A DNA stretch of 64,000 nt, taken from positions 2,954 through 66,953 of the forward strand of contig DURL01000003.1 of the NCBI GenBank assembly GCA_012837345.1, given 5' to 3'. Each line of letters begins with the position of its first letter. Positions within the stretch are counted from its first letter, which is position 1. A program made the translations under genes and the position numbers. The notes below the pieces were generated by a model. It had not been told where the DNA came from and ran no database searches. It saw only the letters and a program-made list of their open reading frames with translations. This DNA comes from Bacteroidales bacterium (GTDB taxonomy: Bacteria; Bacteroidota; Bacteroidia; Bacteroidales; Dysgonomonadaceae). This document shows, piece by piece, positions 2,711 through 27,494 of this stretch.

Positions 2711-2736
2711 ATCAATGTCTTATTTTAATTTCAGTA

Positions 2737-5700
2737 TCAGAATGAAAAGTTCACACCAAACATGATAGAGCGTGGGGTTGGGTAGGATGAATAGTTGTAA
2801 CCGGGTGTAAATGTGCCTCCGGCGAAATCCACGTTGTAACCCCTGTATTTGCTCAATGTAGCGAGATTCTGTGCTGTTGCATATATGCGTACATTGTTCA
2901 GATAACTGCCAAACCATTTGTCCGGGAAATTATAACCGAGAGTGATATTGGCAATCTTCAGATAGGTAGCATCCTGCAGGAAGCGTTCGCTGAACATATT
3001 GTTGGTGATGGAACCGGCCGATTTGTATGCCACGCGCGGCACATCGGTGTTCATGTTGTCCGGTGTCCATGCATTCAACATATCCACACTTTTGTTGAGT
3101 GTGCCGTATGAGCTGCGCAATGTCACATCCACAAAATCGACCACCTTGAATCCTGCAGCGCCATAGGTCGACAAGCTGAGGTCAAAACCTTTCCATTCAA
3201 GACGAGCATTCAGTCCAAAATGTACTTTTGGCAAACCACTACCCAGGAATGTCTGGTCTTCGTTGGTGATTTCACCGTCGTTGTTGAGGTCGGCGTATGC
3301 CACATCACCCGGTTGTGCCCCGGCCTGATTGATGTACATTCCTTCGTCGTTCACACGGTTATCAATCTCCTCCTGCGACTGGAAGATTCCCTCGTAGACG
3401 TATCCGTAGAATGAACCCACTTCACGACCTATCTCTGTGCGGCTGTAACTGTCGTTACGCGGTTCTCCTGAAACACCCAGCTTGGTCACCTTGTTGCTGA
3501 GAGTAGAGAAGTTGGCAGTAACATCATACCTGAAATCATTGTGACGATTGCGGTAGGTAACCAGAAACTCAAGTCCGCTGTTTTCCATTGTCGCAGCGTT
3601 CATTGTTACGGTTTCATTGGTAGCACCCGCATTTGCCGGCACCGCAACACTATAGAGCAGATCTTCAGAGATTGCCTTGTACCAGTCGATGTTGAACTCC
3701 AGCTTGTTGTTGAACATGCCAAGGTCGAGGCCTATGTCAAGCATTTTCTTTTTCTCCCACCGGATGGCCGTGTTTACGTAGTCTGAAATGGATGAACCGG
3801 TAACCTTGTTATTTCCAAAGCTATAGGTGTAGTTTCCTCTCGCCATCACAGCCATATACTGGTATTCACCAATGTTCTCATTCCCCAGTTCACCATAGCT
3901 TCCGCGAAGCTTCAGCAGGTTGATGAGATAGGGATCTACAGGAAAGAAGTTTTCACGTTCGATGCGCCAGCCTGCCGACACCGATGGGAACCAGCCCCAG
4001 CGATCCTCAGAAGAGAGACGACTGGAACCATCACGACGCACTGTAGCAGAAAGAAGATACTTTTGATCGAAATTGTAGTTGAGACGACCAATATAGGATG
4101 CCAGCACGTGCTCGCTCTCGAAGCTTGTTGCGGATGTTTCCTCCGCATTGTTTACCTGCAGGTAGTAGGGTTCAGGCAAGTTAACCCCTTTGCCGGTCAG
4201 CGTGTGATAGAGCTCGCGTTGGAAGGTCTGACCAAGCACCACGTTGAAGTGATTACGTCCAAATTTCCCATCATAGGTCAACAGGTTCTCCATCAGTGCA
4301 TCGCTGTAGTTGCGATATCCCTGCGACAGGTTCTCATTGCTCTTTGAGAGGTAATTGGTTGTACTCTGGATAAACGCGGGAACAAAAGTGAAGTCCTTTG
4401 CAAATGTCTTGCTGTAGGAGAGGTTCAGTTTGTAATCAAAGGTGTGATTCTCATTTTTCCTGCCAACCATATCAAAAAGGTCGACCGTTGCCGAACCTGA
4501 TGCAACAATGCGGTCTACAACTGCATTTCTTTCCAGCAGACTGTTGGTGAGCAGCACATTGGTGACACGCAGGTCGCCATGTACATCGTCGTAGTAGGTG
4601 CCATACCCGTAAGAATCATAGCTGTATTGTGATGCAGCCGAGATTTTGTCGTCGAGCACCCAGGTCGATTCATCATAAGCCTTAATGGTTGGAGGTAAAA
4701 TCAGCGCCGAGGCCATCACGGGAAACTGTTCACCATAGAGTCCCTGTACATACTCGTTGGCATTACTGAGTGCCATATTATCCTGGTCGCTGTGGCTATA
4801 GACGATGTTGGTCTGAAGCTTGACGAACTTGGCATCCATGGTATTGTTGATACGCGCCGTGTAACGCTCGAAGTTAGGACCTGCGCCCACCATGGTTCCC
4901 TCCTGTTTGAAATAGTCGAGGCCGATGTTATAGGTGTTGTTGGCACCTCCACCGGAGATGTTGATGTTGTGATTCTGACGGATACCTGTTTTGAACGCTT
5001 CGTTGAACCAGTTTGTGTTCACCACACCGGGATCGATATATTTTTCACTTGCTGGATTGTAGCCGGCAGGGACATCCATGTTGCTGTTTTGGAATGCCAT
5101 GTTGATGTATTGACCATACTGTTTGGAGTCCATCACATCATACACACCACTTCGCACCTTGTCAACACCCATGTAACCGCTGTAATCGATCTTCATGGGT
5201 TTGTTCCTGGCACCCTGCTTGGTGGTGATGATCACCACGCCGTTTGCTGCGCGTGAACCATAGATGGCAGCGGCAGAAGCATCTTTCAGTACCTGCAGCG
5301 TCTCAATATCATTTGGTGAGAAGTCACGGATGGTTGTTCCCATGGGTACACCATCCACAACATATAGCGGAGCGGTGCTGCCAAAGGAGCCGACCCCACG
5401 GATACGTACTGTGGGGTCTGCACCCGGTTGTCCGTCAGTTGTAATCTGAACACCTGCAACTTTACCCTCCAGCATGGTCGAGATATTGGAATGGGAAACC
5501 TTCTTCATCTCATCTGTGTTGACCACAGCCACTGAACCGGTAAGGTCCACCTTGCGTTGTGTACCATAGCCTACTACTACCACCTGGTCGAGAACCTGCA
5601 AATCAGATACCATGGTGATAATTCCCAGCTCATTTCTTCCGGCCACGTTTATTTCTACAGTTTTGGATCCCACAAATGAGATGATCAGCGTAGCATCTGC

Positions 5701-5958
5701 GGGAACAGATAGCGTGAAGCTGCCATCGGCACCGGTCACGGTACCAACGGTTGTACCGGGTTGTTGTATGGTTGCACCCGGAAGCGGATCTCCATACTCA
5801 TCGATCACGATACCTTTAACAGTGATCCTGTCTGCTTGTGTCATCAGTGCCTGTCCGGCATTGTCGTTTCCTTCTGCATAAGCTGCCGGTGCAAGGGCCA
5901 ATAATCCCAACAAGATTATAAATGTGTATTTCATATGATTGTAATATTTTATTTTCAT
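2737..5958 (-). CDS. susC: SusC-family TonB-dependent transporter
   Basis: N-terminal carboxypeptidase-like domain, VVVGYG, plug motif LKDASAAAIYGSRAANGVVIITTK, RYDGSS-like TVRRDGSSR, terminal aromatic NFSF. Start may be 5958 or 5934. Confidence 0.97.
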   Translation of the reverse strand: MKIKYYNHMKYTFIILLGLLALAPAAYAEGNDNAGQALMTQADRITVKGIVIDEYGDPLPGATIQQPGTTVGTVTGADGSFTLSVPADATLIISFVGSKTVEINVAGRNELGIITMVSDLQVLDQVVVVGYGTQRKVDLTGSVAVVNTDEMKKVSHSNISTMLEGKVAGVQITTDGQPGADPTVRIRGVGSFGSTAPLYVVDGVPMGTTIRDFSPNDIETLQVLKDASAAAIYGSRAANGVVIITTKQGARNKPMKIDYSGYMGVDKVRSGVYDVMDSKQYGQYINMAFQNSNMDVPAGYNPASEKYIDPGVVNTNWFNEAFKTGIRQNHNINISGGGANNTYNIGLDYFKQEGTMVGAGPNFERYTARINNTMDAKFVKLQTNIVYSHSDQDNMALSNANEYVQGLYGEQFPVMASALILPPTIKAYDESTWVLDDKISAASQYSYDSYGYGTYYDDVHGDLRVTNVLLTNSLLERNAVVDRIVASGSATVDLFDMVGRKNENHTFDYKLNLSYSKTFAKDFTFVPAFIQSTTNYLSKSNENLSQGYRNYSDALMENLLTYDGKFGRNHFNVVLGQTFQRELYHTLTGKGVNLPEPYYLQVNNAEETSATSFESEHVLASYIGRLNYNFDQKYLLSATVRRDGSSRLSSEDRWGWFPSVSAGWRIERENFFPVDPYLINLLKLRGSYGELGNENIGEYQYMAVMARGNYTYSFGNNKVTGSSISDYVNTAIRWEKKKMLDIGLDLGMFNNKLEFNIDWYKAISEDLLYSVAVPANAGATNETVTMNAATMENSGLEFLVTYRNRHNDFRYDVTANFSTLSNKVTKLGVSGEPRNDSYSRTEIGREVGSFYGYVYEGIFQSQEEIDNRVNDEGMYINQAGAQPGDVAYADLNNDGEITNEDQTFLGSGLPKVHFGLNARLEWKGFDLSLSTYGAAGFKVVDFVDVTLRSSYGTLNKSVDMLNAWTPDNMNTDVPRVAYKSAGSITNNMFSERFLQDATYLKIANITLGYNFPDKWFGSYLNNVRIYATAQNLATLSKYRGYNVDFAGGTFTPGYNYSSYPTPRSIMFGVNFSF

Positions 5959-5963
5959 AATGA

Positions 5964-7679
5964 TTAGTCTACCAGTACAACATAAGCCCCTTCAATTACC
6001 AGTGCACAATTCAGATCGGAGCTGTCCACCGTGAAGCCCTCATACTTCTGGAAGTGGGTCTCGCCGTTCACGTAGGTTACATTGTAAAGCACATCGGCCG
6101 TATCGTCACCATTGTTTGTCACGGTGATCTCCACCCTGGATCCATTGATGCTGGATGTGAATACATCCCAGTTCCAGTTTGAGGTAGCGGTAGCAGTGGC
6201 ATAGCCGTCGCCCCATCCGAAGTTGTCCATACGCACCACCCCATATTCAGTCATGTCGGCTTTACGCAGAATTGTACATGGGCTGTGAAAGGGTTCCCGG
6301 TTGCTGGAGTAGCAATACATGTTGAGCGTCTTGCTCTGGCCCGATGGAATGTGATAGTCATCAGAGAACACGGTCCACCATCCTGTAGAGAAGTCATTGG
6401 CACCCACCTGGGCTGTACCCTTCACCATCGTGACCGGACAGTTTACGGTAACCGTGCTTGTGGCACCCACATAGGTGATTACGGCATTTTGAGTACCTTC
6501 GGCAGCCGGGATCTTACTGAATTTAAGACCTGAGTTGGCCAGGACACCTGATGTACCGTCTGAATAGGTAGCGTTAACCACCAATCCTTTCGGATTGAAC
6601 AGGACTGAGTCGGGACTAAAGAAATAATACTCGGTTAAGTCTGGCATGGCAGTGATCTCCATACTGGCAACCGGATTTGTAACCTCCAGGGTATAGAACG
6701 TTGATACTGCCGGGCCGTATGCCCCTTGTTTTGTTTTGCTGTATGACACAATCACCGTCTTCTCACCGAGAGTAGTCATATCCGGTACAACCGTAAACGA
6801 GATGTCATCAGGATTCACCTGTTCTGACGATCCGTCGGCATAGGTAACTGTGGCGACAGCATCACCCCAGAAATCCTCGTTGCCAAACTCCACAAACTCG
6901 GGAGCACCCTCCACTGAAATGGATACCGGATTCACATCCTCCACAACAGTGACCTTTGAGGGGATGAGGTAAGCTTTCTTCATTTCAAAATAGCTGCCGT
7001 CGCAAACCAGGAAAGCGACGATATTTTTAGCGGCAGAAACCGGTTGCTGGTAAGTCATCACCAGCTCAACCCCATTGGTGCCGACTGCTGTAGCCGTGAC
7101 AAACACATTGCCGGTAGCTGAGTGATCCACCTCCAGTGTGACAGTGGCACCTTGCATGGTGGTGCGGAAGTCGTTCCATATATCGCCATCACCGTCTACG
7201 TCGGGATAGTCGAAGGCGATCATGCCACCATCGTAGGCATAACCCTCGTCGGCCATGGTGCCTCCCCAGCCGTATGCATCGGAACGAAGCACAAAATACT
7301 CCTTATAGCCATCACCGTCACGATCTGCCACTTCATTGGTAACAGCAAGGTTCCAGTTGTTCCAGTTGTTGACACCGGTGCCATGGTTCACAAACTCCAG
7401 ATGCAACAGCTTGTTAACAGGAATAGCAAAATAATCAGAGAAAGCGGTCCACCAACCGGCACTGTTATCTTCAGCCCCTACAATTGCTGTAGCGATGTCA
7501 ATGTAGGTAGTGTCACCGGTTGAGTGTTTAGCCTTTTCGGCAGCAATCGAGTCGATCCTGCTCTGCAGGTCAGAGGGCGCCACAATTGAGTAGGTCTCAA
7601 GTTTCTCGCATCCCATTAAGGCAATCGCTGCCAAAAGCGATGCGAAAAAAGCACCTTTAATCAGTTTTGATGTTTTCAT
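5964..7679 (-). CDS. Surface glycan-binding lipoprotein with two repeated modules flanking Ig-like (Big_3-type) domains
   Basis: Lipobox ALMGC; repeated motif VGAxDxSxGWWTxFSD (twice); Ig-like segments with VTYADG and ATYSDG; lies upstream of susC as in Bacteroides arabinan PULs. Confidence 0.75.
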   Translation of the reverse strand: MKTSKLIKGAFFASLLAAIALMGCEKLETYSIVAPSDLQSRIDSIAAEKAKHSTGDTTYIDIATAIVGAEDNSAGWWTAFSDYFAIPVNKLLHLEFVNHGTGVNNWNNWNLAVTNEVADRDGDGYKEYFVLRSDAYGWGGTMADEGYAYDGGMIAFDYPDVDGDGDIWNDFRTTMQGATVTLEVDHSATGNVFVTATAVGTNGVELVMTYQQPVSAAKNIVAFLVCDGSYFEMKKAYLIPSKVTVVEDVNPVSISVEGAPEFVEFGNEDFWGDAVATVTYADGSSEQVNPDDISFTVVPDMTTLGEKTVIVSYSKTKQGAYGPAVSTFYTLEVTNPVASMEITAMPDLTEYYFFSPDSVLFNPKGLVVNATYSDGTSGVLANSGLKFSKIPAAEGTQNAVITYVGATSTVTVNCPVTMVKGTAQVGANDFSTGWWTVFSDDYHIPSGQSKTLNMYCYSSNREPFHSPCTILRKADMTEYGVVRMDNFGWGDGYATATATSNWNWDVFTSSINGSRVEITVTNNGDDTADVLYNVTYVNGETHFQKYEGFTVDSSDLNCALVIEGAYVVLVD

Positions 7680-7861
7680 ACGGTAATATTTATTTTATAC
7701 ATTAAACTCCTTTGGAATGAATCCAATAAGTGATGAGAAACAGTCTGGCTCTCCTTGATCATCACATTCCGGAGAACGGGTTACACAAATCTGGTTAAGA
7801 TAACATTTTCAGGGCATATCAAAAAATTAAGCAACTTTTGACTAAAAAAACATACTTTAAT

Positions 7862-7921
7862 ATGTGCAAAGATTCGAATTGTTGGGTTAACGAAGGTGGA
7901 CAAAAGGCTAAATTAGGTGGA
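7862..7921 (-). promoter_or_regulatory. PUL transport-operon promoter with direct-repeat operator (TCCACC-N15-TCCACC) and -7 element AATCTTTG
   Basis: Half-sites at 7916-7921 and 7895-7900 (minus strand, 21-bp period); TTTG at 7867-7870, 24 nt after the second half-site. Confidence 0.75.
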
Positions 7922-7998
7922 GAAACGAACAACCCATTTCTTTTAACTATTGGCAGCACATTAAAAGGTTCATCGGGATTTCTTCTATCCCGGAATCA

Positions 7999-10900
7999 CT
8001 ACTTCTCCAGCAGTTTACTTGGCGTGATATTGAACTGACGCGAAAAACAGCGGGTGAAATATTTCGGATCATTGAATCCCACTGCGTAGGCAATATCCGC
8101 AATATTTTTGTTTTTGGTCTTCTTATTCTGAAGTATGATGTTGTAAGCCAGATTAAGCCGGTATATCCTGATGAATTCACCTGCCGACTTACCACTCAAC
8201 GCCTTCAGTTTCTTGTTCATCAGCGACTTGCTCACACCCACCGTATCGGCAAAATCGGACACCTCGAAATAGGAATTGTGGTAATTCTCTTTCATCACCT
8301 CCAACACCTTGTCCATGAATTTTTTGTCGTTCGACTCTTCACTGATTTCCAATGTTTCGATCGACATCTCATCGATAAATTTCTGTTGATATCTCTCACG
8401 TGTCTCCAAAATATTACGGATACGGGTGAGCAGCATGTTTTCATCGAAGGGCTTCACGATATAAGAATCAACGCCCATGCGATAACTGTCGGTACGGGCT
8501 TTTTCTGATGTCTTTGCAGTGAGCATCAAAAATGGAATATGCGACAGGGTGAAATTCTCCTTCACTTTTCTCGAAAGCTCAAGGCCATCCATCTCGGGCA
8601 TCATTAAATCACTGATGATGAAATCCACATTGTAATGCTCCAGGATCTTATATGCTTCCACACCGTTGCCGGCTTCAAGCGTATTGTAATGGGGAGACAA
8701 CAGTGAACAGACGTAGCGGCACATGTCTCTGTTGTCTTCAACAACCAGGAAGGTGAGTCTATCCTTCTGCCATTCCCTCAGGTTCTGCACATTGAGACCT
8801 TTCTCATCAGCGTGAAAGCTCTTTGCATCCTGAGCCACCTGTGATTGCGGGTTGGACGTATGCAATGGCAGAATAATCCGGAAGGAGGTGCCGGCTTTTC
8901 GGTTGTTCTTTATCCAGATATTTCCTCCGAGAGCCTCCACCACCTGTTTGGTCAGATAAAGGCCAATTCCGGTACCGCTCTGCCCGTGCACAGGGTAGAT
9001 CAGATGGTTACGTGACTGATAAAAGCGCCTGAACACTTTCTCCTTATCCTCCTCGGGGATCCCTGTACCACTATCCTTCACAGCAAGGTACAATTTTTCG
9101 TTGTTGGTTGTGCGCTCCCTGAGTGATTTCACATAAACCGTGATCACCCCCCGGTTGGGTGTGTATTTGATGGCATTGGATATCAAGTTGGTCAGGATCT
9201 TGCGTATTCCTTCATCATCGAAATAAAAGTCAGGATTTGACAGATCATACCTCCTCAGCAACTGAATATCCCTGTCACCGGCTTGAAAATCGAAAGGAGT
9301 AACCACCGACTCAATAAAATCCCGGAAATCTCCTTTCCTGTAGCTCACATCCAGCTTATTGGATTCGATTTTGCGGAAATCCATCAGTTGATTGATCAGT
9401 GTCAGCAGATATTTGGAGTTTCTTTCGGCAAAATGCAACTGTTCAATCACGTAGGGATTGGTACTCAATTTAAGTGCTCTTTCTACTGGCCCTGCTATCA
9501 ACGTGATAGGGGTGCGAAACTCATGTGACACATTGGTGAAAAAGTCGAGTCTCTCCGTGGTCATCTTTCGCATTTTCCGCGACATCTCCACCAGTTGTTC
9601 TTTCTGCCGCGTGATCTTCTCATTCTGTTCACTTAAAAGCAGGTTGCGCTGTGACAGCTCATTTTTCTGAGTTGTCAAGACACCCTTCTGCTTCTCAATC
9701 TCCTCGGTACGGTCATCCACGATTTGCTTCAGCACCTTCTGTTGATGCTCGTATGATCGGACCCGCCAGATATGGAGCATGATGATCGCAAGCACAACCA
9801 GCAGGAGCATCAGGGAGATGAACCAGACGGTTTTATAGAAATAGGGTTTGATCCGGAGATTGATCTGTGTCACCTCTCCTGTATCCAGCCTCTCTTTTGG
9901 CACATACTTAACCTGAAACTGATAAGTACCGGCCGGCAGGTTCATATAGGTCACCGTATGGGCATTTTTCTCCAGTTCAATCCAGTTGTCATCATACCCC
10001 ATAAGCCGATAGGCATATACATAATTGCTAATGGCCCGGTAAGTAAGGGCTGAGAAATCGATCGAGAAGGATCGGGTCTTTTCATGCAGGATGATCTCAT
10101 CCGCCACGGAGATGTCTTCTCTGATGATTTTGCCCGGGTTCACTCTTTCGTTGTTCACGTAGAAATCGGTCAATGTAACCCGGAATGCTGCATTATTCGA
10201 TCGTATCATCTCCGGGTCCACAGCCACCAGTCCGTCAAGGGTGCCAAAATAGAGCAGTCCGCTCTTCGCCTTAGCGTATGCGTTCCAGTAAAACTGGCTG
10301 GAGACAAGACCATCTTCCTCGTAATAATTGGTGAAGCTGTTGTTGTTCCTGTTGTAACAGGACAACCCGTTAATCGTACTGATCCACAGATTACCCCTCT
10401 CATCCTCCAGCAGACCCTTCACATTGTTGTTGGCCAGTCCATCGGAGGTTGTGTAGGATTGAAATGTGTATGATCCATCCTCATTGGTCATCCGTTTGTA
10501 AATGCCGAAGCCGTCGCTTCCCAGCCACATAACGCCCTCGGAATCGATGCAAAAACTGGTTATTCGCTCAATCAGCTTCGATTGGGGATCGTCGAGCTTA
10601 TACTTCAGGTGAACATATGAAAAAGTATGGTCCTCCTGCCGGTTCAGATCAATGACATATACCCCTTCCGCACACCCCATCCATAGTTGGTTGTCGTTGT
10701 CGATCACCGAGCCTATGATTCCGTTGATTTGATCCGACAGGTTGTCACGGAAGGGTTTTTCCAGGCTCTCTTTTTCAATATCGTAGCAGAAGAGACCCTG
10801 GTTCGTTCCGATCCACATGGCATTGTTAAGCCTGTCAAAAGTGAGTGCCCCGACGAAATCGACCAGGAATTGGGGATATTGACCGGAATGGATGTACCTC

Positions 10901-12246
10901 ACCGGCCTTTTTCCCGGATCCGTAATGTCGAGCAGGGTCACACCCAGGCCCCAGGTGCCGGTCCACAAACGCTGCTCATCATCCATGCACAATGCACTCA
11001 CTGAATTGTGACTCAACCTTGCGGTTGACGAAGCGGTGTAATGAGTGAAAACCTCCTCCCCTTTTCTCTTCAGATTTAGACCACCCTCAACCGTTCCAAT
11101 CCACAGATTTTCATCTTCATCTTCCAGAATCGCGTTAACAGGGTTTTGCGACATTGAGCCCTCCACGTTTTTGTCGTGCGTATAGTTCCTGATAAACGCA
11201 TTCCTGGGAGTCAATTTGTTGATCCCCCCTGTTTCGGTGCCCAACCATATCATCCCCTCTTCGGTAAAAATCGTATTGATGAAATTGCTGTTCAATCCGA
11301 AACCCTCGCTTGTGTGCGCTGCTACTATCTGGTCGAATGCATCGGATGAGGTGTTATAGATGTTAATCCCTCTCAGTGTGCCGGCGATCAACTGCCTGGA
11401 ATCGGTCAATGCCAGTTCCGAGACATAATCATGCGACAGAGAGTGAGGATCGCCAGCCTGGCTCCTGTATACCTTCAACACATCTTCGTTCCTGTAATAC
11501 CTGTACAAACCACGGTCAGTGCCTATCCATACATCATTCTCCTTGAGCAGGAATTTCATGATCATGGTTTTGGCACCAAACTTCAGCTTCTCAGATACAG
11601 GTATCGCTTTTAACTGGTTTCTTTCTGATGGGAACAACTTGAATATTTGATTGTTGAAACCGGCCCAGACATTTCCATCATTGTCCATATCGGCGAGCGC
11701 CACAAACAGTTCAGCATGCAGATCATCTTCATAAATCAGAACATCCTGGATGTCACCCTCTTCGGAAAGCTGGATCTTATATATCTTACTGGCATACAAC
11801 CAGATGTCACCCTTTGTATCCTTCATGATATTGAACACCGGGTTTTCAAGAAACGACAAGTTGAGTGAATCAATACCCGAAAACAGCTCCACCTTTTGAT
11901 GATGCCATAAATCCATCACATCCAGACCTCCCTCCGAAACAATCCAGAGGCGGTTGAAATCATCTTCACACACCTTGTGTACAAAATTCCCTTTAATGGC
12001 TACAGGAAACGAGTTCATGTTGTAGTGCGCAAACTTGTATCCGTCATACCGGGAGAGTCCTCCTCCGGTTGAGATCCAGAGGTAACCGGTCACATCCTTG
12101 TAAATGTCATCAATATAATGATGCAACAATCCGTCATCCATCGTGACGAATTGAGTGGTATACTCCTCACCGGTTAATCTCTGTGCAGATATAAAGAGAG
12201 AATGAAGAATCAGGATGGCTACTAAATAAAAAAACTTCCTTTTCAT
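7999..12246 (-). CDS. Hybrid two-component system sensor kinase/response regulator with AraC-type HTH
   Basis: Periplasmic beta-propeller repeats (LWIGT..GGL), Y_Y_Y domain, TM helix, HisKA FFTNVSHEFRTP, ATPase DSGTGI/GTGIGL, receiver DFIISDLMMP, C-terminal AVGFNDPKYFTRCF. Confidence 0.97.
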   Translation of the reverse strand: MKRKFFYLVAILILHSLFISAQRLTGEEYTTQFVTMDDGLLHHYIDDIYKDVTGYLWISTGGGLSRYDGYKFAHYNMNSFPVAIKGNFVHKVCEDDFNRLWIVSEGGLDVMDLWHHQKVELFSGIDSLNLSFLENPVFNIMKDTKGDIWLYASKIYKIQLSEEGDIQDVLIYEDDLHAELFVALADMDNDGNVWAGFNNQIFKLFPSERNQLKAIPVSEKLKFGAKTMIMKFLLKENDVWIGTDRGLYRYYRNEDVLKVYRSQAGDPHSLSHDYVSELALTDSRQLIAGTLRGINIYNTSSDAFDQIVAAHTSEGFGLNSNFINTIFTEEGMIWLGTETGGINKLTPRNAFIRNYTHDKNVEGSMSQNPVNAILEDEDENLWIGTVEGGLNLKRKGEEVFTHYTASSTARLSHNSVSALCMDDEQRLWTGTWGLGVTLLDITDPGKRPVRYIHSGQYPQFLVDFVGALTFDRLNNAMWIGTNQGLFCYDIEKESLEKPFRDNLSDQINGIIGSVIDNDNQLWMGCAEGVYVIDLNRQEDHTFSYVHLKYKLDDPQSKLIERITSFCIDSEGVMWLGSDGFGIYKRMTNEDGSYTFQSYTTSDGLANNNVKGLLEDERGNLWISTINGLSCYNRNNNSFTNYYEEDGLVSSQFYWNAYAKAKSGLLYFGTLDGLVAVDPEMIRSNNAAFRVTLTDFYVNNERVNPGKIIREDISVADEIILHEKTRSFSIDFSALTYRAISNYVYAYRLMGYDDNWIELEKNAHTVTYMNLPAGTYQFQVKYVPKERLDTGEVTQINLRIKPYFYKTVWFISLMLLLVVLAIIMLHIWRVRSYEHQQKVLKQIVDDRTEEIEKQKGVLTTQKNELSQRNLLLSEQNEKITRQKEQLVEMSRKMRKMTTERLDFFTNVSHEFRTPITLIAGPVERALKLSTNPYVIEQLHFAERNSKYLLTLINQLMDFRKIESNKLDVSYRKGDFRDFIESVVTPFDFQAGDRDIQLLRRYDLSNPDFYFDDEGIRKILTNLISNAIKYTPNRGVITVYVKSLRERTTNNEKLYLAVKDSGTGIPEEDKEKVFRRFYQSRNHLIYPVHGQSGTGIGLYLTKQVVEALGGNIWIKNNRKAGTSFRIILPLHTSNPQSQVAQDAKSFHADEKGLNVQNLREWQKDRLTFLVVEDNRDMCRYVCSLLSPHYNTLEAGNGVEAYKILEHYNVDFIISDLMMPEMDGLELSRKVKENFTLSHIPFLMLTAKTSEKARTDSYRMGVDSYIVKPFDENMLLTRIRNILETRERYQQKFIDEMSIETLEISEESNDKKFMDKVLEVMKENYHNSYFEVSDFADTVGVSKSLMNKKLKALSGKSAGEFIRIYRLNLAYNIILQNKKTKNKNIADIAYAVGFNDPKYFTRCFSRQFNITPSKLLEK

Positions 12247-12265
12247 GATACCCTTTCACTACACA

Positions 12266-12273
12266 CAAAAGTA
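12266..12273 (-). promoter_or_regulatory. Bacteroidetes sigma-A -7 element for the HTCS gene
   Basis: TACTTTTG matches TAnnTTTG, 20 nt upstream of the ATG at 12246. Confidence 0.65.
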
Positions 12274-12333
12274 AAAATAATAATCAACCTAAATTAGTTA
12301 AAAATAAACCTATTTTGTCAATTCATCCAATAA

Positions 12334-12388
12334 TCCACCATCTGTGTTCATTTCTCTACCTTTTCGTTAAAAAATAACATTTTGTTTG
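12334..12388 (+). promoter_or_regulatory. GH43/GH51 promoter with direct-repeat operator TCCACC-N15-TCTACC
   Basis: Half-sites at 12334-12339 and 12355-12360; TTTG at 12385-12388, 24 nt later. Confidence 0.75.
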
Positions 12389-12417
12389 TAGAAGAATCTC
12401 AAACGGAAAAAGACAAC

Positions 12418-13926
12418 GTGAAAAAAAAACACACCCTGCTGCAGTTCACTTCAATTTTTACTACTTGCCTGTCACTATTCTTGTTTTCCTGCAAACAAGT
12501 GCAACCATCATTTAGCCCGGAGGCGAAAGTGAATCCGTGGATCGATGACTACGCTCCCCTCTCCGCAATGGAACATTACAAAGAATGGGGAACATACAAT
12601 GTACATGATCCGGCAATAAAAAAATTTGGCGATGATTACTACATCTATTCCACTGATGCCATCTTCGCGGAAAACCGGGAGAGAGCCAGGGAGATGAATG
12701 TACCGCTGGGGAACATCCAGATCAGGAAGTCCAAAGATCTTGTTCACTGGGAGTTTGTGGGATGGGCTTTCCCCGGGATCCCGAAAGAGGCTGTTGACTG
12801 GGTACATGCGCACAATGAAGGCAGAGGAGCGACGAACATCTGGGCTCCCTATGTAATGAAACAGGGGGATAGATACAGGCTTTATTATAGTGTATCAGCA
12901 TTCGGCAAAAAAACATCCTGGATTGGCCTGGCTGAGTCCGCCTCTCCGGAAGGACCATGGGAGCAAAAAGGCACAGTAGTGAAAAGCAACAGCCTTACAC
13001 CGGTCAATGCCATTGACCCGAGTGTAATTGAAGATCCGGACAATGGCAGGATATGGATGCATTACGGATCCTATTTTGGGGGATTGTATTGCGTTGAACT
13101 CGACCCGGCCACAGGATTAACCATGAAGAGAGATGACCTGGGACATCTGATAGCCCGAAGAGCCAACTATCGTAAAGATAACCTTGAAGCACCGGAGATC
13201 ATTTACAACCCTGATTTGAAAAAATACTTCCTTTTCGTCTCTTATGATCCACTGATGACCACCTACAATGTGCGTGTGGGTCGATCAGACAAACCGGAAG
13301 GACCTTTTTACGACTATTTCGGTAAGAACATGAACGATACCCTCAACAACTTCCCCATCATTACAGCCCCCTACCGGTTCGACAATCATCCCGGATGGGC
13401 AGGCACGGGACACTGTGGCATCCTGGCAACAGAAGAGGGGCGTTACTATATGGCACACCAGGGTCGTCTTTCACCGGGAAACCACCTGATGGTGCTGCAT
13501 CTCAGGGAGCTCTTCTTCACCCCTGACGGCTGGCCTGTAGTATCTCCCCAAAGATATGCCGGTGACGCAGAACGGGTGGTTTCGACACAGGATGTTGCCG
13601 GTGAATGGGAGTTGATCCGCATCCGGGAATCGACCTACGATCGGCAGCTGGCAGCAGGGCAGATATTGTGGGGAGAGGGCAGCCTGAAAGAGGAGGAGTG
13701 GAACAATTCATTTCATTTGAATCTGAACGCAGACGGCACCACAGGCGACAACGGTTCCTGGACCTTTGCTAAAAAAAACCAAACATTATCATTATCTTTG
13801 GGCAGGGATACCATCCGTAATTTGTTTATCTTTACCGGACAGGACTGGGAAAACCAGAAGCATACACTCCTTTTTACCGGACTGGATGATGAGGGTCGTT
13901 CGGTGTGGGGAAAACGCATAAAATAA
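12418..13926 (+). CDS. GH43 endo-arabinanase lipoprotein with C-terminal beta-domain
   Basis: NVHDP, WAPYV, NAIDPS and LEAPEI catalytic motifs; lipobox FLFSC. GTG at 12418 preferred because the track's TTG start (12382) overlaps the promoter. Confidence 0.92.
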   Translation: MKKKHTLLQFTSIFTTCLSLFLFSCKQVQPSFSPEAKVNPWIDDYAPLSAMEHYKEWGTYNVHDPAIKKFGDDYYIYSTDAIFAENRERAREMNVPLGNIQIRKSKDLVHWEFVGWAFPGIPKEAVDWVHAHNEGRGATNIWAPYVMKQGDRYRLYYSVSAFGKKTSWIGLAESASPEGPWEQKGTVVKSNSLTPVNAIDPSVIEDPDNGRIWMHYGSYFGGLYCVELDPATGLTMKRDDLGHLIARRANYRKDNLEAPEIIYNPDLKKYFLFVSYDPLMTTYNVRVGRSDKPEGPFYDYFGKNMNDTLNNFPIITAPYRFDNHPGWAGTGHCGILATEEGRYYMAHQGRLSPGNHLMVLHLRELFFTPDGWPVVSPQRYAGDAERVVSTQDVAGEWELIRIRESTYDRQLAAGQILWGEGSLKEEEWNNSFHLNLNADGTTGDNGSWTFAKKNQTLSLSLGRDTIRNLFIFTGQDWENQKHTLLFTGLDDEGRSVWGKRIK

Positions 13927-13948
13927 CCACCACATAAAATAATCAGAC

Positions 13949-15925
13949 ATGAAGAATTGTACGATTTTATTCGCTGCCTTGCTGGCACTCTCTTTTGGCT
14001 TCGCCCTCCATGCACAGACCAACGAAATGACGATCCAGGCAAACAGGAAGGGGGCTGAAATTCAACCCACCATGTACGGTTTGTTTTTTGAGGATATCAA
14101 TTATGCAGCCGACGGGGGTCTCTATGCCGAATTAATCAAGAACCGCTCCTTTGAGTTTCCGCAAAATTTTATGGGATGGGAAACATATGGAAAGGTGACA
14201 TTGAAGGATGACGGTCCCTTTGAACGAAACCCGCACTATGTACGTCTCGATGATCCCGGACATGCTCACAAACGCACCGGACTACAAAACGAGGGTTTTT
14301 TCGGAATTGGAATAGAAGAAGGGAAAGAGTATCGTTTCTCTGTATGGGCCCGCGTACCGGGTGAAGCAAGTGAGATCAGGGTGCAGCTAATTCACTACTC
14401 TTCGATGGGTGAACATCAGGCACTGGTATCAGAGGCGCTTGTCGTCGATTCAAAAGAGTGGAAGAAATATCAATTGGTATTCAAATCACCGGAAACACAA
14501 CCCAAGGCGATGTTACGTATCTTCCTGGAATCAGGAAACAGTGTTGATCTGGAGCATATCTCGCTCTTTCCCGTTGACACATGGAACGGACATGAAAATG
14601 GACTGCGTAAGGATCTGGCACAGGCCCTTTATGACATCCGTCCGGGCGTCTTCCGTTTCCCGGGAGGATGTATTGTAGAGGGTACAGACCTGGCAACACG
14701 CTATGACTGGAAAAAAAGTGTGGGGCCGGTTGAGAACAGGCCATTGAACGAAAACCGCTGGCACTATACATTCCCTCATCGTTTTTTTCCTGACTATTTC
14801 CAGAGCTACGGACTGGGTTTCTACGAGTATTTCCTTCTTTCGGAAGAACTGGGTGCCGAGCCGCTACCGGTACTGAGTGTGGGACTGGCATGTCAGTTTC
14901 AGAATGAGGAAGAGCATGCACATGTGGCTGTATGTGATCTGGATGGATACATCCGTGATGCGCTCGACCTGATTGAGTTCGCCAACGGCAGCCCTGATAG
15001 CGAATGGGGCAAGGTGCGGGCAGAAATGGGTCACGCAGAGCCCTTTAACCTCAAATTTATCGCTATTGGAAACGAACAATGGGGAGAGGAATATGTGGTA
15101 CGACTGAAACCCTTCGTAGAAGCAATCCGCAAGCAATACCCCGAAATGATGATTATTGGCGGTTCCGGCCCCGGCTCGGAAGGTGAACAGTTTGAATACC
15201 TCTGGCCTGAGATGAAAAAGCTGAATGTCGACCTGGTGGATGAACATTTCTATCGCCCTGAAAGCTGGTTCCTCAGCGAGGGAGCACGTTACGACAATTA
15301 CGACCGCAAGGGACCCAAAGTGTTCGCCGGCGAGTATGCCTGCCACGGAAAAGGAAAGAAATGGAACCACTTCTACACCTCACTCCTGGAGGCAGCTTTC
15401 ATGACCGGAATGGAGCGTAATGCCGACATCGTTCACATGGCCACCTACGCACCTCTCTTCGCGCATGTGGAAGGGTGGCAGTGGCGTCCCGACATGATCT
15501 GGTTTGACAACCTGCACAGTGTGAAAACCGTAAGCTACTACGTGCAGCAGTTGTTCTCGCTGAACAAAGGAACCCATGTGCTGCCGCTGACGATGAACGG
15601 AATAGCGATTACCGGTGCGGATGGACAAAACGGACTCTTCGCGAGCGCCGTATGGGACAACGATCAGAGCGAGGTGATTGTGAAAATCGTAAACACATCG
15701 GAGAAGAGACAACCGCTTCAGATAAACGTCAATGGATTAAAAAAGAGTGAGAATCTCACTAACGGCAGGGTCATACAGTTGAAATCGGATGAGCCGGATG
15801 CTGAAAACACCATCGCCAACCCCACGCTGATTGTCCCCGTTGAAAGTGAAATCGTGATCGACGGCCATAAGCTGGAGTCAGCGATTGATCCCCACACATT
15901 CAATATTTACAAGATCAAATTGTAA
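13949..15925 (+). CDS. GH51 alpha-L-arabinofuranosidase with N-terminal CBM-like domain
   Basis: Signal peptide; FFEDINYAADGGLYAELIKNRSFE, FRFPGGC, IGNEQWG (acid/base) and AGEYA (nucleophile). Confidence 0.95.
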   Translation: MKNCTILFAALLALSFGFALHAQTNEMTIQANRKGAEIQPTMYGLFFEDINYAADGGLYAELIKNRSFEFPQNFMGWETYGKVTLKDDGPFERNPHYVRLDDPGHAHKRTGLQNEGFFGIGIEEGKEYRFSVWARVPGEASEIRVQLIHYSSMGEHQALVSEALVVDSKEWKKYQLVFKSPETQPKAMLRIFLESGNSVDLEHISLFPVDTWNGHENGLRKDLAQALYDIRPGVFRFPGGCIVEGTDLATRYDWKKSVGPVENRPLNENRWHYTFPHRFFPDYFQSYGLGFYEYFLLSEELGAEPLPVLSVGLACQFQNEEEHAHVAVCDLDGYIRDALDLIEFANGSPDSEWGKVRAEMGHAEPFNLKFIAIGNEQWGEEYVVRLKPFVEAIRKQYPEMMIIGGSGPGSEGEQFEYLWPEMKKLNVDLVDEHFYRPESWFLSEGARYDNYDRKGPKVFAGEYACHGKGKKWNHFYTSLLEAAFMTGMERNADIVHMATYAPLFAHVEGWQWRPDMIWFDNLHSVKTVSYYVQQLFSLNKGTHVLPLTMNGIAITGADGQNGLFASAVWDNDQSEVIVKIVNTSEKRQPLQINVNGLKKSENLTNGRVIQLKSDEPDAENTIANPTLIVPVESEIVIDGHKLESAIDPHTFNIYKIKL

Positions 15926-15966
15926 TAACAGGATAACATTCCCGTCATAAAAGCTGGAGAGTCAAC

Positions 15967-16002
15967 ACAAAAGCTGGATGAGCACGCTCATCCAGCTTTT
16001 GT
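15967..16002 (+). terminator. Intrinsic terminator after the first GH51
   Basis: Perfect 17-bp inverted repeat ACAAAAGCTGGATGAGC-AC-GCTCATCCAGCTTTTGT including a T-run. Confidence 0.85.
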
Positions 16003-16010
16003 TGAATAAA

Positions 16011-16065
16011 TCCACCATCTGTACTCATTTCTCTACCTGTTAGTTGGATAAATATGTTATTTTTG
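16011..16065 (+). promoter_or_regulatory. GH97 promoter with direct-repeat operator TCCACC-N15-TCTACC and -7 element TATTTTTG
   Basis: Half-sites at 16011-16016 and 16032-16037; consensus TATTTTTG at 16058-16065, with TTTG 24 nt after the second half-site. Confidence 0.8.
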
Positions 16066-16088
16066 TGCAGATATCAACATATGAACCG

Positions 16089-18029
16089 ATGAAAAGATTT
16101 ATACTGAGTCTCTTCTTGTTTTCGTTTCTGATTCCGCTCTCTTCAGAGAACATAAAGATCAGCAGCCCCGACAATAAGCTGCAGGCAGATATCAATTTGG
16201 AGAATGGAGAGCTCACATACAGCGTCCGTTACAAGGAAAGGATTATACTGGAAGATTCGCCCCTGGGACTGATCACCAATGTAAGCGATTTCAGTCGTAA
16301 CCTGATACTGGTAGAAACGAATGAGACAACCATACAACACTCCTATCAGGAACCAAAGATCAAACAAAGCAGGGTGGATTACCTGGCCAACGAAGTGACC
16401 TGCACCTATGAGACAACAGAGAAGGAACAGTTCAGCATCACCTTCCGGGTGAGCAACCACGACATCGCATTCCGCTATTCACTGGCACAGAACGGAGAGA
16501 CTGCCCGTTGCATCATCGAAAAAGAACTGACCGGGTTCAACTTCCCCTCTTTCACCACTACCTTCCTCACCCCGCAGGCGACACCCATGATCGGCTGGAT
16601 GAGAACCAAACCCAGCTACGAAGAAGAATATCTGCCTGATGAACCAATCGGCACACCTTCCAGATATGGCCTGGGATACACCTTCCCCGGACTGTTCCAT
16701 GTGGGCGACAATGGCTGGGCATTGCTCTCCGAGACTGGTGTCGACAGCCGTTACTGCGGCTCAAAGCTGAGTGAGGGTACTGCTGAGGGTCTTTACACCA
16801 TCGCCTACCCGGAAGAGGGAGAGAACAACAGTATCGGCAACGCCAATCCTGCTATCCCATTACCGGGGGTGACTCCCTGGCGCACCATCACCGTGGGTGA
16901 CAACCTGAAACCAATTGTCGAGACCACCATCGCATTCGACCTGGTTGAACCACTTTATGAACCCTCAAGGGAGTACCGGTTCGGTCGCTCCACCTGGAGC
17001 TGGCTCCTCTGGCAGGACGGAAGCATCAACTACGACGACCAGAAATCATTCATCGACCTCTCGGCAGAGATGGGTTATGAACTGGTACTCATCGACAACT
17101 GGTGGGAGAGCCGTATCGGCAAGGAAAAGATTGAACAATTGGCACAATATGCCGCTTCCAAAAATGTAGGGATTGCCCTCTGGTACAACTCCAACGGCTT
17201 TTGGAGCGACGCACCACAGGGACCCAAGAACCGCATGAACCGATCTGTTGTCCGCAAAAAGGAGATGGCATGGATGCAAAGCATCGGTGTGAAAGGGATC
17301 AAAGTCGATTTCTTTGGCGGGGACAAGCAGGAGACCATGAAGCTCTATGAAGAGATCCTGTCGGACGCCAACGATTACGGGCTGACGGTTATCTTTCATG
17401 GATGCACCCTCCCCCGCGGATGGGAACGGATGTATCCCAACTTTGCCGGCAGCGAGGCGGTACTGGCATCTGAAAACCTGATCTTCACACAGCACGCCAA
17501 CGATCACGAAGCATACAACGCAGCGTTGCACCCCTTCATCCGGAACAGCGTGGCATCGATGGACTTCGGTCCCGTGCTGCTCAACAAACGACACAACCGT
17601 AACAACGACGGGGGAACCACCCGCAGGACAACGGAGACCTTCCAGATGGCAACAGCTGTACTGTTTCAGTCGCCCATCCAGAATTTCGGTATCACTCCCA
17701 ACAACCTGACGGAGCAACCCTCGTTCGTGATCGACTTCATGAAAAAGATCCCCACCCTTTGGGATGAGACTCTCCTCATCGACGGGTATCCGGGTAAATA
17801 TGTGGTGCTGGCCAGGCGTCATGGAGAACAATGGTACGTGGCGGGCATCAATGCCGGGAAAGAAGAAAAAATGATCACCCTCAGACTGCCGATGTTGACC
17901 GGAAAGAGTCTGCTTCTCTATAACGACAGGAATGACAGAACTGCACAGCTCCTGCAACAGAAACTAACTGCAAAGGGAGAACTGGTGGTGACACTGCAAC
18001 CGGAGGGTGGATTCATCGTAACAAATTGA
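16089..18029 (+). CDS. GH97 glycoside hydrolase, retaining-type signature
   Basis: Signal peptide MKRFILSLFLFSFLIPLSS; SPDNKL, TPWRTI, GIKVDFFGGD, FHGCTLPRGWERMYPN and VVLARRHG GH97 motifs. Start reassigned from TTG 16044, which overlaps the promoter. Confidence 0.92.
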   Translation: MKRFILSLFLFSFLIPLSSENIKISSPDNKLQADINLENGELTYSVRYKERIILEDSPLGLITNVSDFSRNLILVETNETTIQHSYQEPKIKQSRVDYLANEVTCTYETTEKEQFSITFRVSNHDIAFRYSLAQNGETARCIIEKELTGFNFPSFTTTFLTPQATPMIGWMRTKPSYEEEYLPDEPIGTPSRYGLGYTFPGLFHVGDNGWALLSETGVDSRYCGSKLSEGTAEGLYTIAYPEEGENNSIGNANPAIPLPGVTPWRTITVGDNLKPIVETTIAFDLVEPLYEPSREYRFGRSTWSWLLWQDGSINYDDQKSFIDLSAEMGYELVLIDNWWESRIGKEKIEQLAQYAASKNVGIALWYNSNGFWSDAPQGPKNRMNRSVVRKKEMAWMQSIGVKGIKVDFFGGDKQETMKLYEEILSDANDYGLTVIFHGCTLPRGWERMYPNFAGSEAVLASENLIFTQHANDHEAYNAALHPFIRNSVASMDFGPVLLNKRHNRNNDGGTTRRTTETFQMATAVLFQSPIQNFGITPNNLTEQPSFVIDFMKKIPTLWDETLLIDGYPGKYVVLARRHGEQWYVAGINAGKEEKMITLRLPMLTGKSLLLYNDRNDRTAQLLQQKLTAKGELVVTLQPEGGFIVTN

Positions 18030-18054
18030 GGCTCCTGTAGGATCTGAATAAAAT

Positions 18055-18075
18055 AAGTATTAACTTTACACTCAT
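18055..18075 (+). promoter_or_regulatory. Imperfect palindromic operator overlapping the ara operon promoter (AraR-like)
   Basis: AGTATTAACTTTACACT (18056-18072) has 12 of 16 arm positions symmetric and overlaps a near-consensus -7 element TAACTTTA (18061-18068). Confidence 0.6.
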
Positions 18076-18175
18076 TAATTGGCCATTGAGGGTAAACCCT
18101 CATCTGATCCCGGAAATGTTTGTCGATCGCAATATTCCAATTGAAATTCAATCATTCAACATAAAACTGAAACCC

Positions 18176-19717
18176 ATGAAACTGAAAAGAACTCTCCAGA
18201 TTTTGACACTGCTGTTGATCGGCAGCACTGCCCTTAATGCACAGAACCGATTGATCATTGAAGCCGACCGTGGAGCAAACACCATCAACCGCCACATTTA
18301 CGGCCATTTTTCCGAACACCTCGGACGCTGTATATACGGCGGGTACTGGGTGGGTGAAGATTCCTCCACACCCAACACACGCGGTATCCGCAACGATGTG
18401 GTGGCAGCGCTGAAAGAGATCCAGATACCCAACCTGCGATGGCCGGGAGGGTGCTTTGCCGACGAGTATCACTGGATGGACGGCATCGGACCGCGTGATC
18501 AAAGACCCAAGATGATCAACACCCACTGGGGTGGCGTGGTGGAAGACAACAGCTTCGGCACCCATGAGTTCCTTGACCTGTGCGAACAGCTGGGTACCGA
18601 GCCCTATATCAGCGCCAACGTGGGTAGCGGCACGGTGGAAGAGATGTCGAAATGGGTCGAATATGTCACCTTCGATGGTGAGAGCCCGATGGCCAACCTG
18701 CGGCGCCAGAACGGTCGTGAAGAGCCCTGGAAGGTGAAGTTCTGGGGAATAGGCAATGAGAGCTGGGGCTGCGGTGGCAACATGGAACCCGATTATTACG
18801 CCAACCTCTACCGTCATTATGCCACCTTCGCCAGGAACTATGGCGACAATCGGGTATACAAGATTGCCTGCGGCGCCAACGGGGGCGACTACAACTGGAC
18901 CGAAACCGTGATGAAGAATGCGGGACGTCACATGCAGGGTCTCTCGCTTCACTACTACACCGTTCCAAGAGACTGGAGCGACAAGGGATCGGCCCTTCAG
19001 TTCGACGAAGCGGAATATTTCACCACCATCGAAAAGACCCTCTTCATGGATGAACTGATCACTAAGCATGGGGCCATCATGGACCGCTACGATCCGCAGA
19101 AGAGAGTGGGCCTGATCATCGACGAGTGGGGTACCTGGTACAATGTGGAGCCGGGCACCAACCCGGGGTTCCTCTATCAGCAGAACACCCTGCGCGATGC
19201 CATCGTGGCAGGCATCAACCTCAACATCTTCAACAGGCACAGTGACCGCGTGCAGATGGCCAACCTGGCACAGACCGTGAATGTGCTTCAGTCGGTGATC
19301 CTGACCGACGAGGAAAAGATGTTACGTACCCCCACCTATTGGGTATTCTACCTCTACAAGGTACACCAGAATGCGACCCTTCTTCCCATCTCCTTCACCA
19401 GCACCAAGTACCGACAGAGTAACAGGGAGATTGATGCTGTCAGCGTCTCCGCATCAAAAGATGCCAACGGCAAGATTCACATCACACTGGTGAATGCTGA
19501 TCCCAGCAACGAACAGCAGATCAGCACCCAGTTGATAGGTGCATCAGTAAAAAAAGTGAGCGGTCAGATGCTCACCTCGGCAAAGATTGATGACCACAAC
19601 ACATTTGAACAACCGGACAAGGTAAGCATAACTGACTTCAGGGGAGCAACCCTGAAGAACGGTGACCTCTCGGTGGTATTACCTCCGAAGTCAGTGGTGA
19701 TGCTGGAAATACTATAA
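18176..19717 (+). CDS. GH51 alpha-L-arabinofuranosidase (AbfA type)
   Basis: Signal peptide from ATG 18176; [30 protein letters not shown] and [15 protein letters not shown]. Confidence 0.95.
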
Positions 19718-19727
19718 AACAAATGAT

Positions 19728-20417
19728 ATGAGCATAGAAGAACTGAAACAACAGGTGTTCCGTGCCAACCTCGATCTGGTGGAGCATGGACTGGTCATCT
19801 TCACCTGGGGCAATGTGAGCGGCATCGACCGCGAACGTGGAGTGGTGGTGATCAAACCCTCCGGTGTCGCCTACGAAGGGATGAAGGCTGACGACATGGT
19901 CGTGGTCGACATGGAGGGAAACAGGGTAGAGGGCAATTACAAACCCTCCTCCGACACTGCCACCCACCTGGAGCTCTACAAGGCTTTCCCCGAAACAGGA
20001 GGGGTAGTACACACCCACTCCACCTATGCCACAGCCTGGGCACAGGCAGGCTGCGATATTCCAAATATCGGCACCACCCATGCTGACTATTTCAGCGATG
20101 ACATCCCCTGCACCCGTGATATGACAAAGGATGAGATCATGGGTGATTATGAAAAAGATACCGGTAGCGTGATCATTGAACGCTTCACAGGGTTGAATCC
20201 GGCGCATATACCGGGTGTTCTGGTGAAAAATCATGGTCCCTTTGCCTGGGGTAAAGATCCGCATGATGCGGTTCACAATGCCGTGGTGATGGAGCAGGTG
20301 GCCAAGATGGCCTTTATCTCCCGCCAGGTGAACCCGCAGCTCACCATGAACCGGTGGCTCATCGAGAAACATTTCTCCCGCAAGCATGGGCCCAACGCCT
20401 ACTACGGACAGAAATAA
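19728..20417 (+). CDS. araD: L-ribulose-5-phosphate 4-epimerase
   Basis: [30 protein letters not shown] and HGPFAWG class II aldolase-fold motifs. Confidence 0.96.
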
Positions 20418-20451
20418 AAAAAGATACATCAACAATAAAAAAAAAGAGAAT

Positions 20452-21960: not shown

Positions 21961-22017
21961 GCATCCGCCGATCACAGAAGCAATGAAACGGGATACGAAT
22001 AACGAAATCAAAAGAGT

Positions 22018-23691: not shown

Positions 23692-23698
23692 ACCTGCG

Positions 23699-27410: not shown

Positions 27411-27494
27411 GCCCAGATGGCGGAATTGGTAGACGCGCTGGTCTCAAACACCAGTGGATTCACTTCCATGCCGGTTCGATCCCGGCTCTGGGTA
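27411..27494 (+). tRNA. tRNA-Leu(CAA)
   Basis: Acceptor stem GCCCAGA/TCTGGGT, D-loop with TGGTA, anticodon loop CTCAAAC, long variable arm, GGTTCGATCCC T-arm. Confidence 0.95.

Follow-up and report, generated by a model that had tools for sequence, protein, structure and literature searches.

Closest described systems

The motifs that Ravcheev et al. (2013) predicted, for 16 hybrid two-component systems (HTCSs), are all direct repeats, about 21 bp apart on average (PMC3878776). The in-silico motif of HTCS_Ara-1 (BT0366) from Bacteroides thetaiotaomicron, TGTCCACC...CCACCT, was located before BT0367 and its orthologs (PMC3878776). Subsequently, Schwalm et al. (2016) reported that a fragment of BT0366 comprising the receiver and DNA-binding parts shifts DNA of the BT0365 and BT0366-67 promoters, both of which contain this motif, and that the >1,500-fold induction of BT0364 and BT0367 by arabinan requires BT0366 (PMC5061871). 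Gao et al. (2026) obtained footprints of the receiver and DNA-binding fragment of another HTCS, BT4124, on half-sites arranged in tandem at a distance of about 21-22 bp (PMC13292587). A related arrangement is described here for a 64,000-nucleotide stretch of DNA (hereafter the window) from a Bacteroidales bacterium of the Dysgonomonadaceae (assembly GCA_012837345.1, contig DURL01000003.1, positions 2,954 to 66,953), which encodes an HTCS flanked by three direct repeats, designated operators C, A and B. Judged from the sequence, these repeats are very probably the operators of the adjacent arabinan-sensing HTCS, a Proteiniphilum-type ortholog of BT0366, and would form a class II-like switch for three operons.

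Unlike the BT4124 sites, which have another half-site sequence, serve a regulator of homogalacturonan and are farther from the start codon (PMC13292587), the window sites closely resemble those of the BT0366 system. In both, direct repeats are built from half-sites with the core CCACC, the 21-bp period being also present in the B. thetaiotaomicron-like locus L019; both occupy the same two promoter positions with GH43-GH51 (glycoside hydrolase, GH) neighbours, the -7 TTTG being 24-25 nt away in L019; and the regulators are orthologous, with 51% identity over the full length. The window, however, comes from a different family-level lineage, has the proximal half-site TCTACC at two of its promoters, and contains a third operator, before an operon with araD, araA and araB. 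The window sites are the counterpart of the HTCS_Ara-1 operator and are not new in kind, while the near-invariant -7 register, the third site before the ara operon and the sharing of the operator by kinase-less regulators go beyond the literature consulted.

Three direct repeats in fixed register with the predicted promoter

The exact pattern TCYACC-N15-TCYACC occurs three times in the window. Among 100 dinucleotide-preserving shuffles the average was 0.03 matches, and three matches were never attained. All three repeats are intergenic and each points at an operon. The operators and the associated promoter elements are as follows.

7895..7921, minus strand: operator C, TCCACC-N15-TCCACC, extended form GTTTCTCCACC...TTTTGTCCACC; exact match, matrix score 39.2
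7867..7874, minus strand: predicted -7 box of promoter C, AATCTTTG
12334..12360, plus strand: operator A, TCCACC-N15-TCTACC, in the divergent HTCS/GH43 intergenic region; exact match, matrix score 17.4
12381..12388, plus strand: predicted -7 region of promoter A, TTTGTTTG, off-consensus, in which the second TTTG is the one 24 nt after the half-site
16011..16037, plus strand: operator B, TCCACC-N15-TCTACC; exact match, matrix score 16.4
16058..16065, plus strand: -7 box of promoter B, TATTTTTG, consensus

The same positions were recovered with a weight matrix for which neither the window nor close relatives of it were used; the 35 training sites came from distant loci. The three top-scoring window positions were C, A and B (scores in bits), followed by a position with 9.1, and the best score in 10 shuffles was 11.2.

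Promoters read by the sigma-ABfr polymerase are defined by TAnnTTTG at -7 and TTTG near -33 (PMC7366714). At all three window promoters a TTTG lies exactly 24 nt past the proximal half-site (7870-7867 on the minus strand, 12385-12388 and 16062-16065 on the plus strand). Counted from the predicted start site, the proximal half-site spans approximately -38 to -33 and the distal one approximately -59 to -54; no -33 TTTG is present in register at the three promoters, the half-site being found at that position. An earlier, sequence-only reading of this DNA had proposed the three sites with their 21-bp period, the 24-nt spacer, the location of the second half-site in place of the -33 element and the deviation of two of the three -7 elements from the consensus, and each of these statements was reproduced. 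Only the box of promoter B fits TAnnTTTG, while TTTGTTTG and AATCTTTG deviate from it; the former is retained in loci L001, L002 and L011, and the TTTG of the latter is invariant across the aligned related promoters. In related Bacteroides-type promoters the -7 boxes mostly follow the consensus.

Conservation of the repeats and of their spacing

Among genomes, the window is matched most closely by metagenome-assembled ones from Proteiniphilum and unclassified Bacteroidales, and the window DNA is present in metagenomes of anaerobic digesters and bioreactors. Related loci were fetched over a range of HTCS identity from 86% down to 49%; a single-protein scan of genome contigs yielded close relatives only, and the distant orthologs were obtained by protein search with contig look-ups and from a scan of metagenomes. 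The metagenome scan contributed 80 loci, mostly with HTCS paralogs, and the paralogs served as negative controls. The pooled loci used for counting repeats and their register comprised 1.28 Mb.

All of the checked full-length loci with an HTCS 49-86% identical to that of the window carry the repeat, with a period of 21 bp, at one or both of the homologous promoter positions, namely past the HTCS stop codon, ahead of the binding-protein/susC operon, and between the divergently oriented HTCS and GH43 genes. In these loci TTTG follows 24-25 nt past the repeat. Two apparent exceptions, L012 and L018, each have half-site variants with one mismatch. The half-sites of operator C correspond to the family consensus and are unchanged in eight related loci. 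Operator A is kept in L001, L002 and L011 and has the form TCCACC...TCCACC in Bacteroides-type loci, while counterparts of operator B precede the GH97 gene in L002 and L011. In an alignment of eight C-type promoters the invariant blocks are both half-sites and the -7 TTTG.

The register was further examined over all 58 unique CYACC-N16-CYACC repeats in the pooled loci. TTTG was found at +24 in 40 of them and at +25 in six, no other offset having more than five occurrences. The remaining 12 lack TTTG at both offsets, and those that could be placed in called genes (e.g. L011 3571 and L016 10012) are coding. The consensus of the 40 in-register sites is c.TTT.TCCACC tt.tata.tc.TTTgTCCACC followed by 18 variable nt and TA.tTTTG, corresponding to an extended repeat unit of about 13 bp, yC-n-TTT-r-TCCACC. 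A unit of this length would be a plausible footprint of an AraC-type domain with two helix-turn-helix (HTH) motifs.

Operators A and B are identical at 25 of 27 matched positions, spacer included, which suggests duplication. It could therefore be supposed that they are copies of one promoter cassette, that operator C is a coincidence and that none of the sites has a regulatory role. Such a relic is extremely unlikely, since the likeness of A and B ends outside the operator, shuffled sequence is expected to yield only 0.03 matches, and the sequence between the repeat elements diverges among related loci while the half-sites and their spacing persist, down to an HTCS identity of 49% and in the kinase-less relatives described below.

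In the Proteiniphilum-like loci the 24-nt spacer of the C-type promoters contains an imperfect palindrome of the TTGTT-N5-AACAA type, which in the window is TTCGTT-AACCC-AACAAT (7894-7878, minus strand). Equivalents were found in L001, L004, L011, L013, L014 and L018, for example ATAGTT-AACCG-AACTAT in L004 and CATTG-N9-CAATG in L013, but not in Bacteroides-type loci. The arms vary among the loci in a partly complementary manner. The palindrome may serve a second regulator, a dimeric one, as its operator; alternatively, limited divergence may account for it.

The probable regulator recognising the repeat

The sequence-only reading had assigned the repeats to the adjacent HTCS. This assignment is supported by the conservation of the sites at the same promoters, by their distribution with a clade of DNA-binding domains, and by the match of TCYACC to the core of the HTCS_Ara-1 motif, which emerged from the comparison with RegPrecise motifs that the same reading had suggested (PMC3878776). 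The motif with an in-register TTTG was found in 32 of 43 loci encoding a C-terminal DNA-binding domain with the FTRCF signature and in one of 47 loci without it (Fisher p ~6e-14); several of the 11 FTRCF loci lacking the motif are truncated contigs or have one-mismatch variants. The same reading had regarded HTCS binding to direct repeats two helical turns apart as established, which holds for the footprinted sites of BT4124 (PMC13292587) and otherwise corresponds to the 2013 prediction.

Many HTCSs of 1,380-1,470 aa, some of them labelled Bacteroides, share 49-51% identity with the window HTCS over 98-100% of its length, and the receiver and DNA-binding part of the window HTCS matches PDB entry 12aw, ‘hybrid two-component system protein’ (E 4e-49), which is probably the BT4124 structure of Gao et al. 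(2026). The HTCS encoded in L019 is 51% identical to that of the window. Since L019 matches the published BT0365 and BT0367 upstream sequences with 0-2 mismatches and has the repeat at both promoters, the window sites are tied to the HTCS_Ara-1 regulon.

In B. thetaiotaomicron, AraR and BT4338 take part in the regulation of the arabinan promoters (PMC5061871), so that some other factor might bind the repeats, be it a global Crp-like regulator, a repressor resembling AraR or an extracytoplasmic function (ECF) sigma factor, and their adjacency to the HTCS gene might be incidental. This is very unlikely. The operator type of AraR, an NrtR-family regulator, is the palindrome GTGT-N7-ACAC known from BT0356 and BT0365; it has no match in the 64-kb window or in the Proteiniphilum-type loci, and in L019, where it is present as in L017, it is separate from the repeat and lies upstream of it. 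The motif follows the clade of the HTCS DNA-binding domain across 90 loci, its form, a direct repeat with a 21-bp period, is that of the HTCS prediction and of the HTCS footprint, and the BT0366 protein shifts the orthologous fragments (PMC5061871).

Regulators of about 990 aa, composed of the propeller, Y_Y_Y and AraC-type HTH parts with no histidine kinase or receiver, are encoded in L033-L038, L040, L041, L044-L046 and L054. They share the type of DNA-binding domain and an operator of the form TGTCCACC-N13-TGTCCACC, located 24 nt before TTTG. In L034 such a regulator (6001-8961, site at 9030-9055) lies beside GH51 and GH43 genes, and in L040 (5959-8949, site at 9129-9154) it lies beside alpha-amylase and pullulanase-type genes; therefore the operator is common to sensors of apparently different glycans.

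Other HTCS paralog loci have direct repeats of their own with a period of 21-22 bp (e.g. ATTCTTACA...TTTCTTACA), located 20-32 nt upstream of TAnnTTTG, according to a quick, non-systematic search (L083 ~5870-5936, L074 ~3235-3300, L052 ~15175-15245 and L084 ~3610-3683). A fixed promoter-proximal register may thus be general for HTCS operators.

Activation or repression

At the class II promoters of the AraC araBAD I1-I2, XylS, RhaS and MelR type, AraC-type domains with two HTH motifs bind direct repeats with a centre-to-centre distance of 21 bp. In Proteobacterial class II promoters of the AraC family the upstream promoter element is partly covered by the proximal unit, and the promoter is weak without the activator. 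The present system differs in that the polymerase carries sigma-ABfr and the regulator is a membrane-embedded hybrid kinase/response regulator and not a soluble ligand-binding protein.

Class II-like activation is most likely for the window promoters, as judged from the position of the sites only. Arabino-oligosaccharide in the periplasm would trigger phosphotransfer, and the DNA-binding domains of the membrane-anchored HTCS would be freed. Given the 21-bp period, the two AraC-type domains of a dimeric HTCS would occupy the direct repeat on the same face of the DNA, with the proximal unit ending 24 (rarely 25) nt upstream of the sigma-ABfr -7 TTTG, in place of the -33 TTTG. The promoter-proximal domain could then recruit or stabilise RNA polymerase in a class II-like manner, comparable to AraC at I1-I2 or to XylS, and three operons would be turned on, namely binding protein-susC-susD, GH43-GH51 and GH97-GH51-araD-araA-araB-GH127. 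A register this close to invariant speaks for stereospecific polymerase contact of the kind known from class II promoters of the AraC family, and by this analogy the HTCS may touch sigma or the alpha subunit.

Several points weigh against the proposed activation of three operons by the HTCS. Operators A and B have the non-consensus proximal half-site TCTACC, a variant common to the Proteiniphilum-type relatives, which makes them weaker than operator C and places their scores far below it. The motif scans covered the 64-kb window and the fetched loci, so that 64 kb of this genome is represented. Public RNA runs containing the locus come from compost and digester communities and provide sparse assembled contigs with a depth of 2-10; those from four runs are too sparse for calling start sites, and some of them cross intergenic regions. 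The -33 elements are weak and poorly conserved across Bacteroidota (PMC7366714), and a missing -33 element is therefore weak evidence for dependence on an activator. Finally, constitutively active BT4124R was reported to lower the expression of its local targets, and therefore the proximity of a site to a promoter is on its own no proof of activation.

This decreased expression of local genes, together with the overlap of the sites with the promoter, would fit an HTCS that binds the repeats and represses by occluding the -33 region. Repression is nevertheless quite unlikely, because the ortholog BT0366 is needed for the strong induction of BT0364 and BT0367 (PMC5061871), because an in-register -33 TTTG is lacking and only one of the three -7 boxes matches the consensus, as fits activator-dependent promoters, and because the strict register of 24-25 nt is predicted by stereospecific recruitment, while occlusion would allow variable spacing.

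Genes and operons of the locus

The gene assignments made in the sequence-only reading (HTCS, binding protein/susC/susD, GH43/GH51 and GH97) were correct according to Pfam matches. The main genes and elements of the locus are listed below; assignments of genes are by Pfam, in operon B together with the spacing of open reading frames (ORFs).

7999..12246, minus strand: HTCS, complete, with propeller/Y_Y_Y sensor, HisKA, HATPase, receiver and AraC-type HTH
12266..12273, minus strand: -7 box of the HTCS gene's own promoter, TACTTTTG, consensus, 20 nt before the ATG
956..7679, minus strand: operon C, with a binding-protein-like gene (5964-7679), susC (2737-5958) and susD (956-2710)
12418..15925, plus strand: operon A, GH43 and GH51 (13949-15925)
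15967..16002, plus strand: intrinsic-terminator-like hairpin with a perfect 16-bp stem (-30 kcal/mol, z -5.74), after GH51 and before operator B
16089..26065, plus strand: operon B, GH97, GH51-like, araD, araA, araB and GH127, with gaps of <=58 nt
16044-18029, plus strand: GH97 (ORF)
18086-19717, plus strand: GH51-like
19728-20417, plus strand: araD
20386-21960, plus strand: araA
22018-23691, plus strand: FGGY kinase (araB)
23699-26065, plus strand: GH127 beta-L-arabinofuranosidase

The gene order of operon C is repeated in the relatives, and that of operon B is the same in L011. Two of the mechanically assigned starts overlap the promoters. The GH43 ORF (12382-13926) begins with TTG at 12382, the likely start being GTG 12418, after which a lipoprotein-like signal peptide can be read from the sequence; the GH97 ORF begins with TTG at 16044, the likely start being ATG 16089, followed by a signal-peptide-like sequence.

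Because the strong terminator hairpin lies between operon A and operator B, operon B would need its own promoter. RNA contigs from two runs stop at 16011. A scan for sigma-70-type promoter and terminator patterns was uninformative for this Bacteroidota DNA and missed the hairpin because its T-run lies within the stem.

The leader of operon C is about 180 nt long (window 7680-7866, minus strand), and its first ~45 nt are conserved in related loci (CAnnTATTAAAGTATGTTTTT.TAGTCAAAAGTTG.TTAATTT). Its predicted fold is no more stable than those of shuffled sequences (z +1.14), and no Rfam match was found for it; the Rfam scan of the whole window returned tRNAs only.

Some 60 nt lie between the -7 box of the HTCS gene, TACTTTTG, and operator A, whose orientation points away from the HTCS gene; operator A may also take part in autoregulation. 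In B. thetaiotaomicron the BT0366 mRNA was reported to be 15-fold higher upon induction.

Downstream of operon B, a gene for an AbiEii-family nucleotidyltransferase toxin (27848-28669) overlaps an upstream ORF of 207 aa without a Pfam match (together 27848-29289, minus strand). The two genes probably represent a type IV toxin-antitoxin pair; a tRNA gene (27411-27494) adjoins them.

L-arabinose catabolism and AraR

In B. thetaiotaomicron, BT0366 does not shift the promoter of the arabinose operon, whose control lies with AraR and BT4338 (PMC5061871). In the window, operator B precedes the operon comprising GH97, GH51, araD, araA, araB and GH127, and the HTCS therefore seems to control L-arabinose catabolism directly in this lineage, as far as can be read from the arrangement of operator and genes. 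Besides araD, araA and araB, two more genes for arabinofuranosidases stand behind this promoter with its HTCS site. No Nudix/NrtR-type regulator was found among the annotated ORFs of the window (956-33762).

In L019 about 10 nt separate the experimentally defined AraR operator, AGTGTAAAAAAGACACT (10349-10365), from the distal HTCS unit downstream of it, both being contained in the region 10349-10406. This location just upstream of the distal unit suggests that AraR in L019 would interfere with the activator and would not form a roadblock.

A broader proposal, which is tentative and held with less than even confidence, is that the whole clade of AraC-type domains, including those of kinase-less regulators beside non-arabinan genes, is an obligate substitute for the recognition of -33 by sigma-ABfr, and that the Proteiniphilum switch has in addition captured araD, araA and araB, replacing the AraR layer of Bacteroides.

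Implications for polysaccharide utilisation in Bacteroidota

The conserved -7 register offers a concrete geometry for the activation of sigma-ABfr polymerase by a membrane-tethered HTCS, a step for which no characterisation was found in the literature consulted. If the broader proposal is true, it would provide a defined activator-polymerase geometry for Bacteroidota. The three precisely placed operators could serve as arabinan-inducible promoter parts. The regulon known from Bacteroides would be extended to a lineage of Bacteroidales from biogas reactors and digesters, in which, as the third operator suggests, the sensing of polysaccharide is coupled directly to pentose catabolism, whereas in B. 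thetaiotaomicron the coupling is indirect, via AraR.

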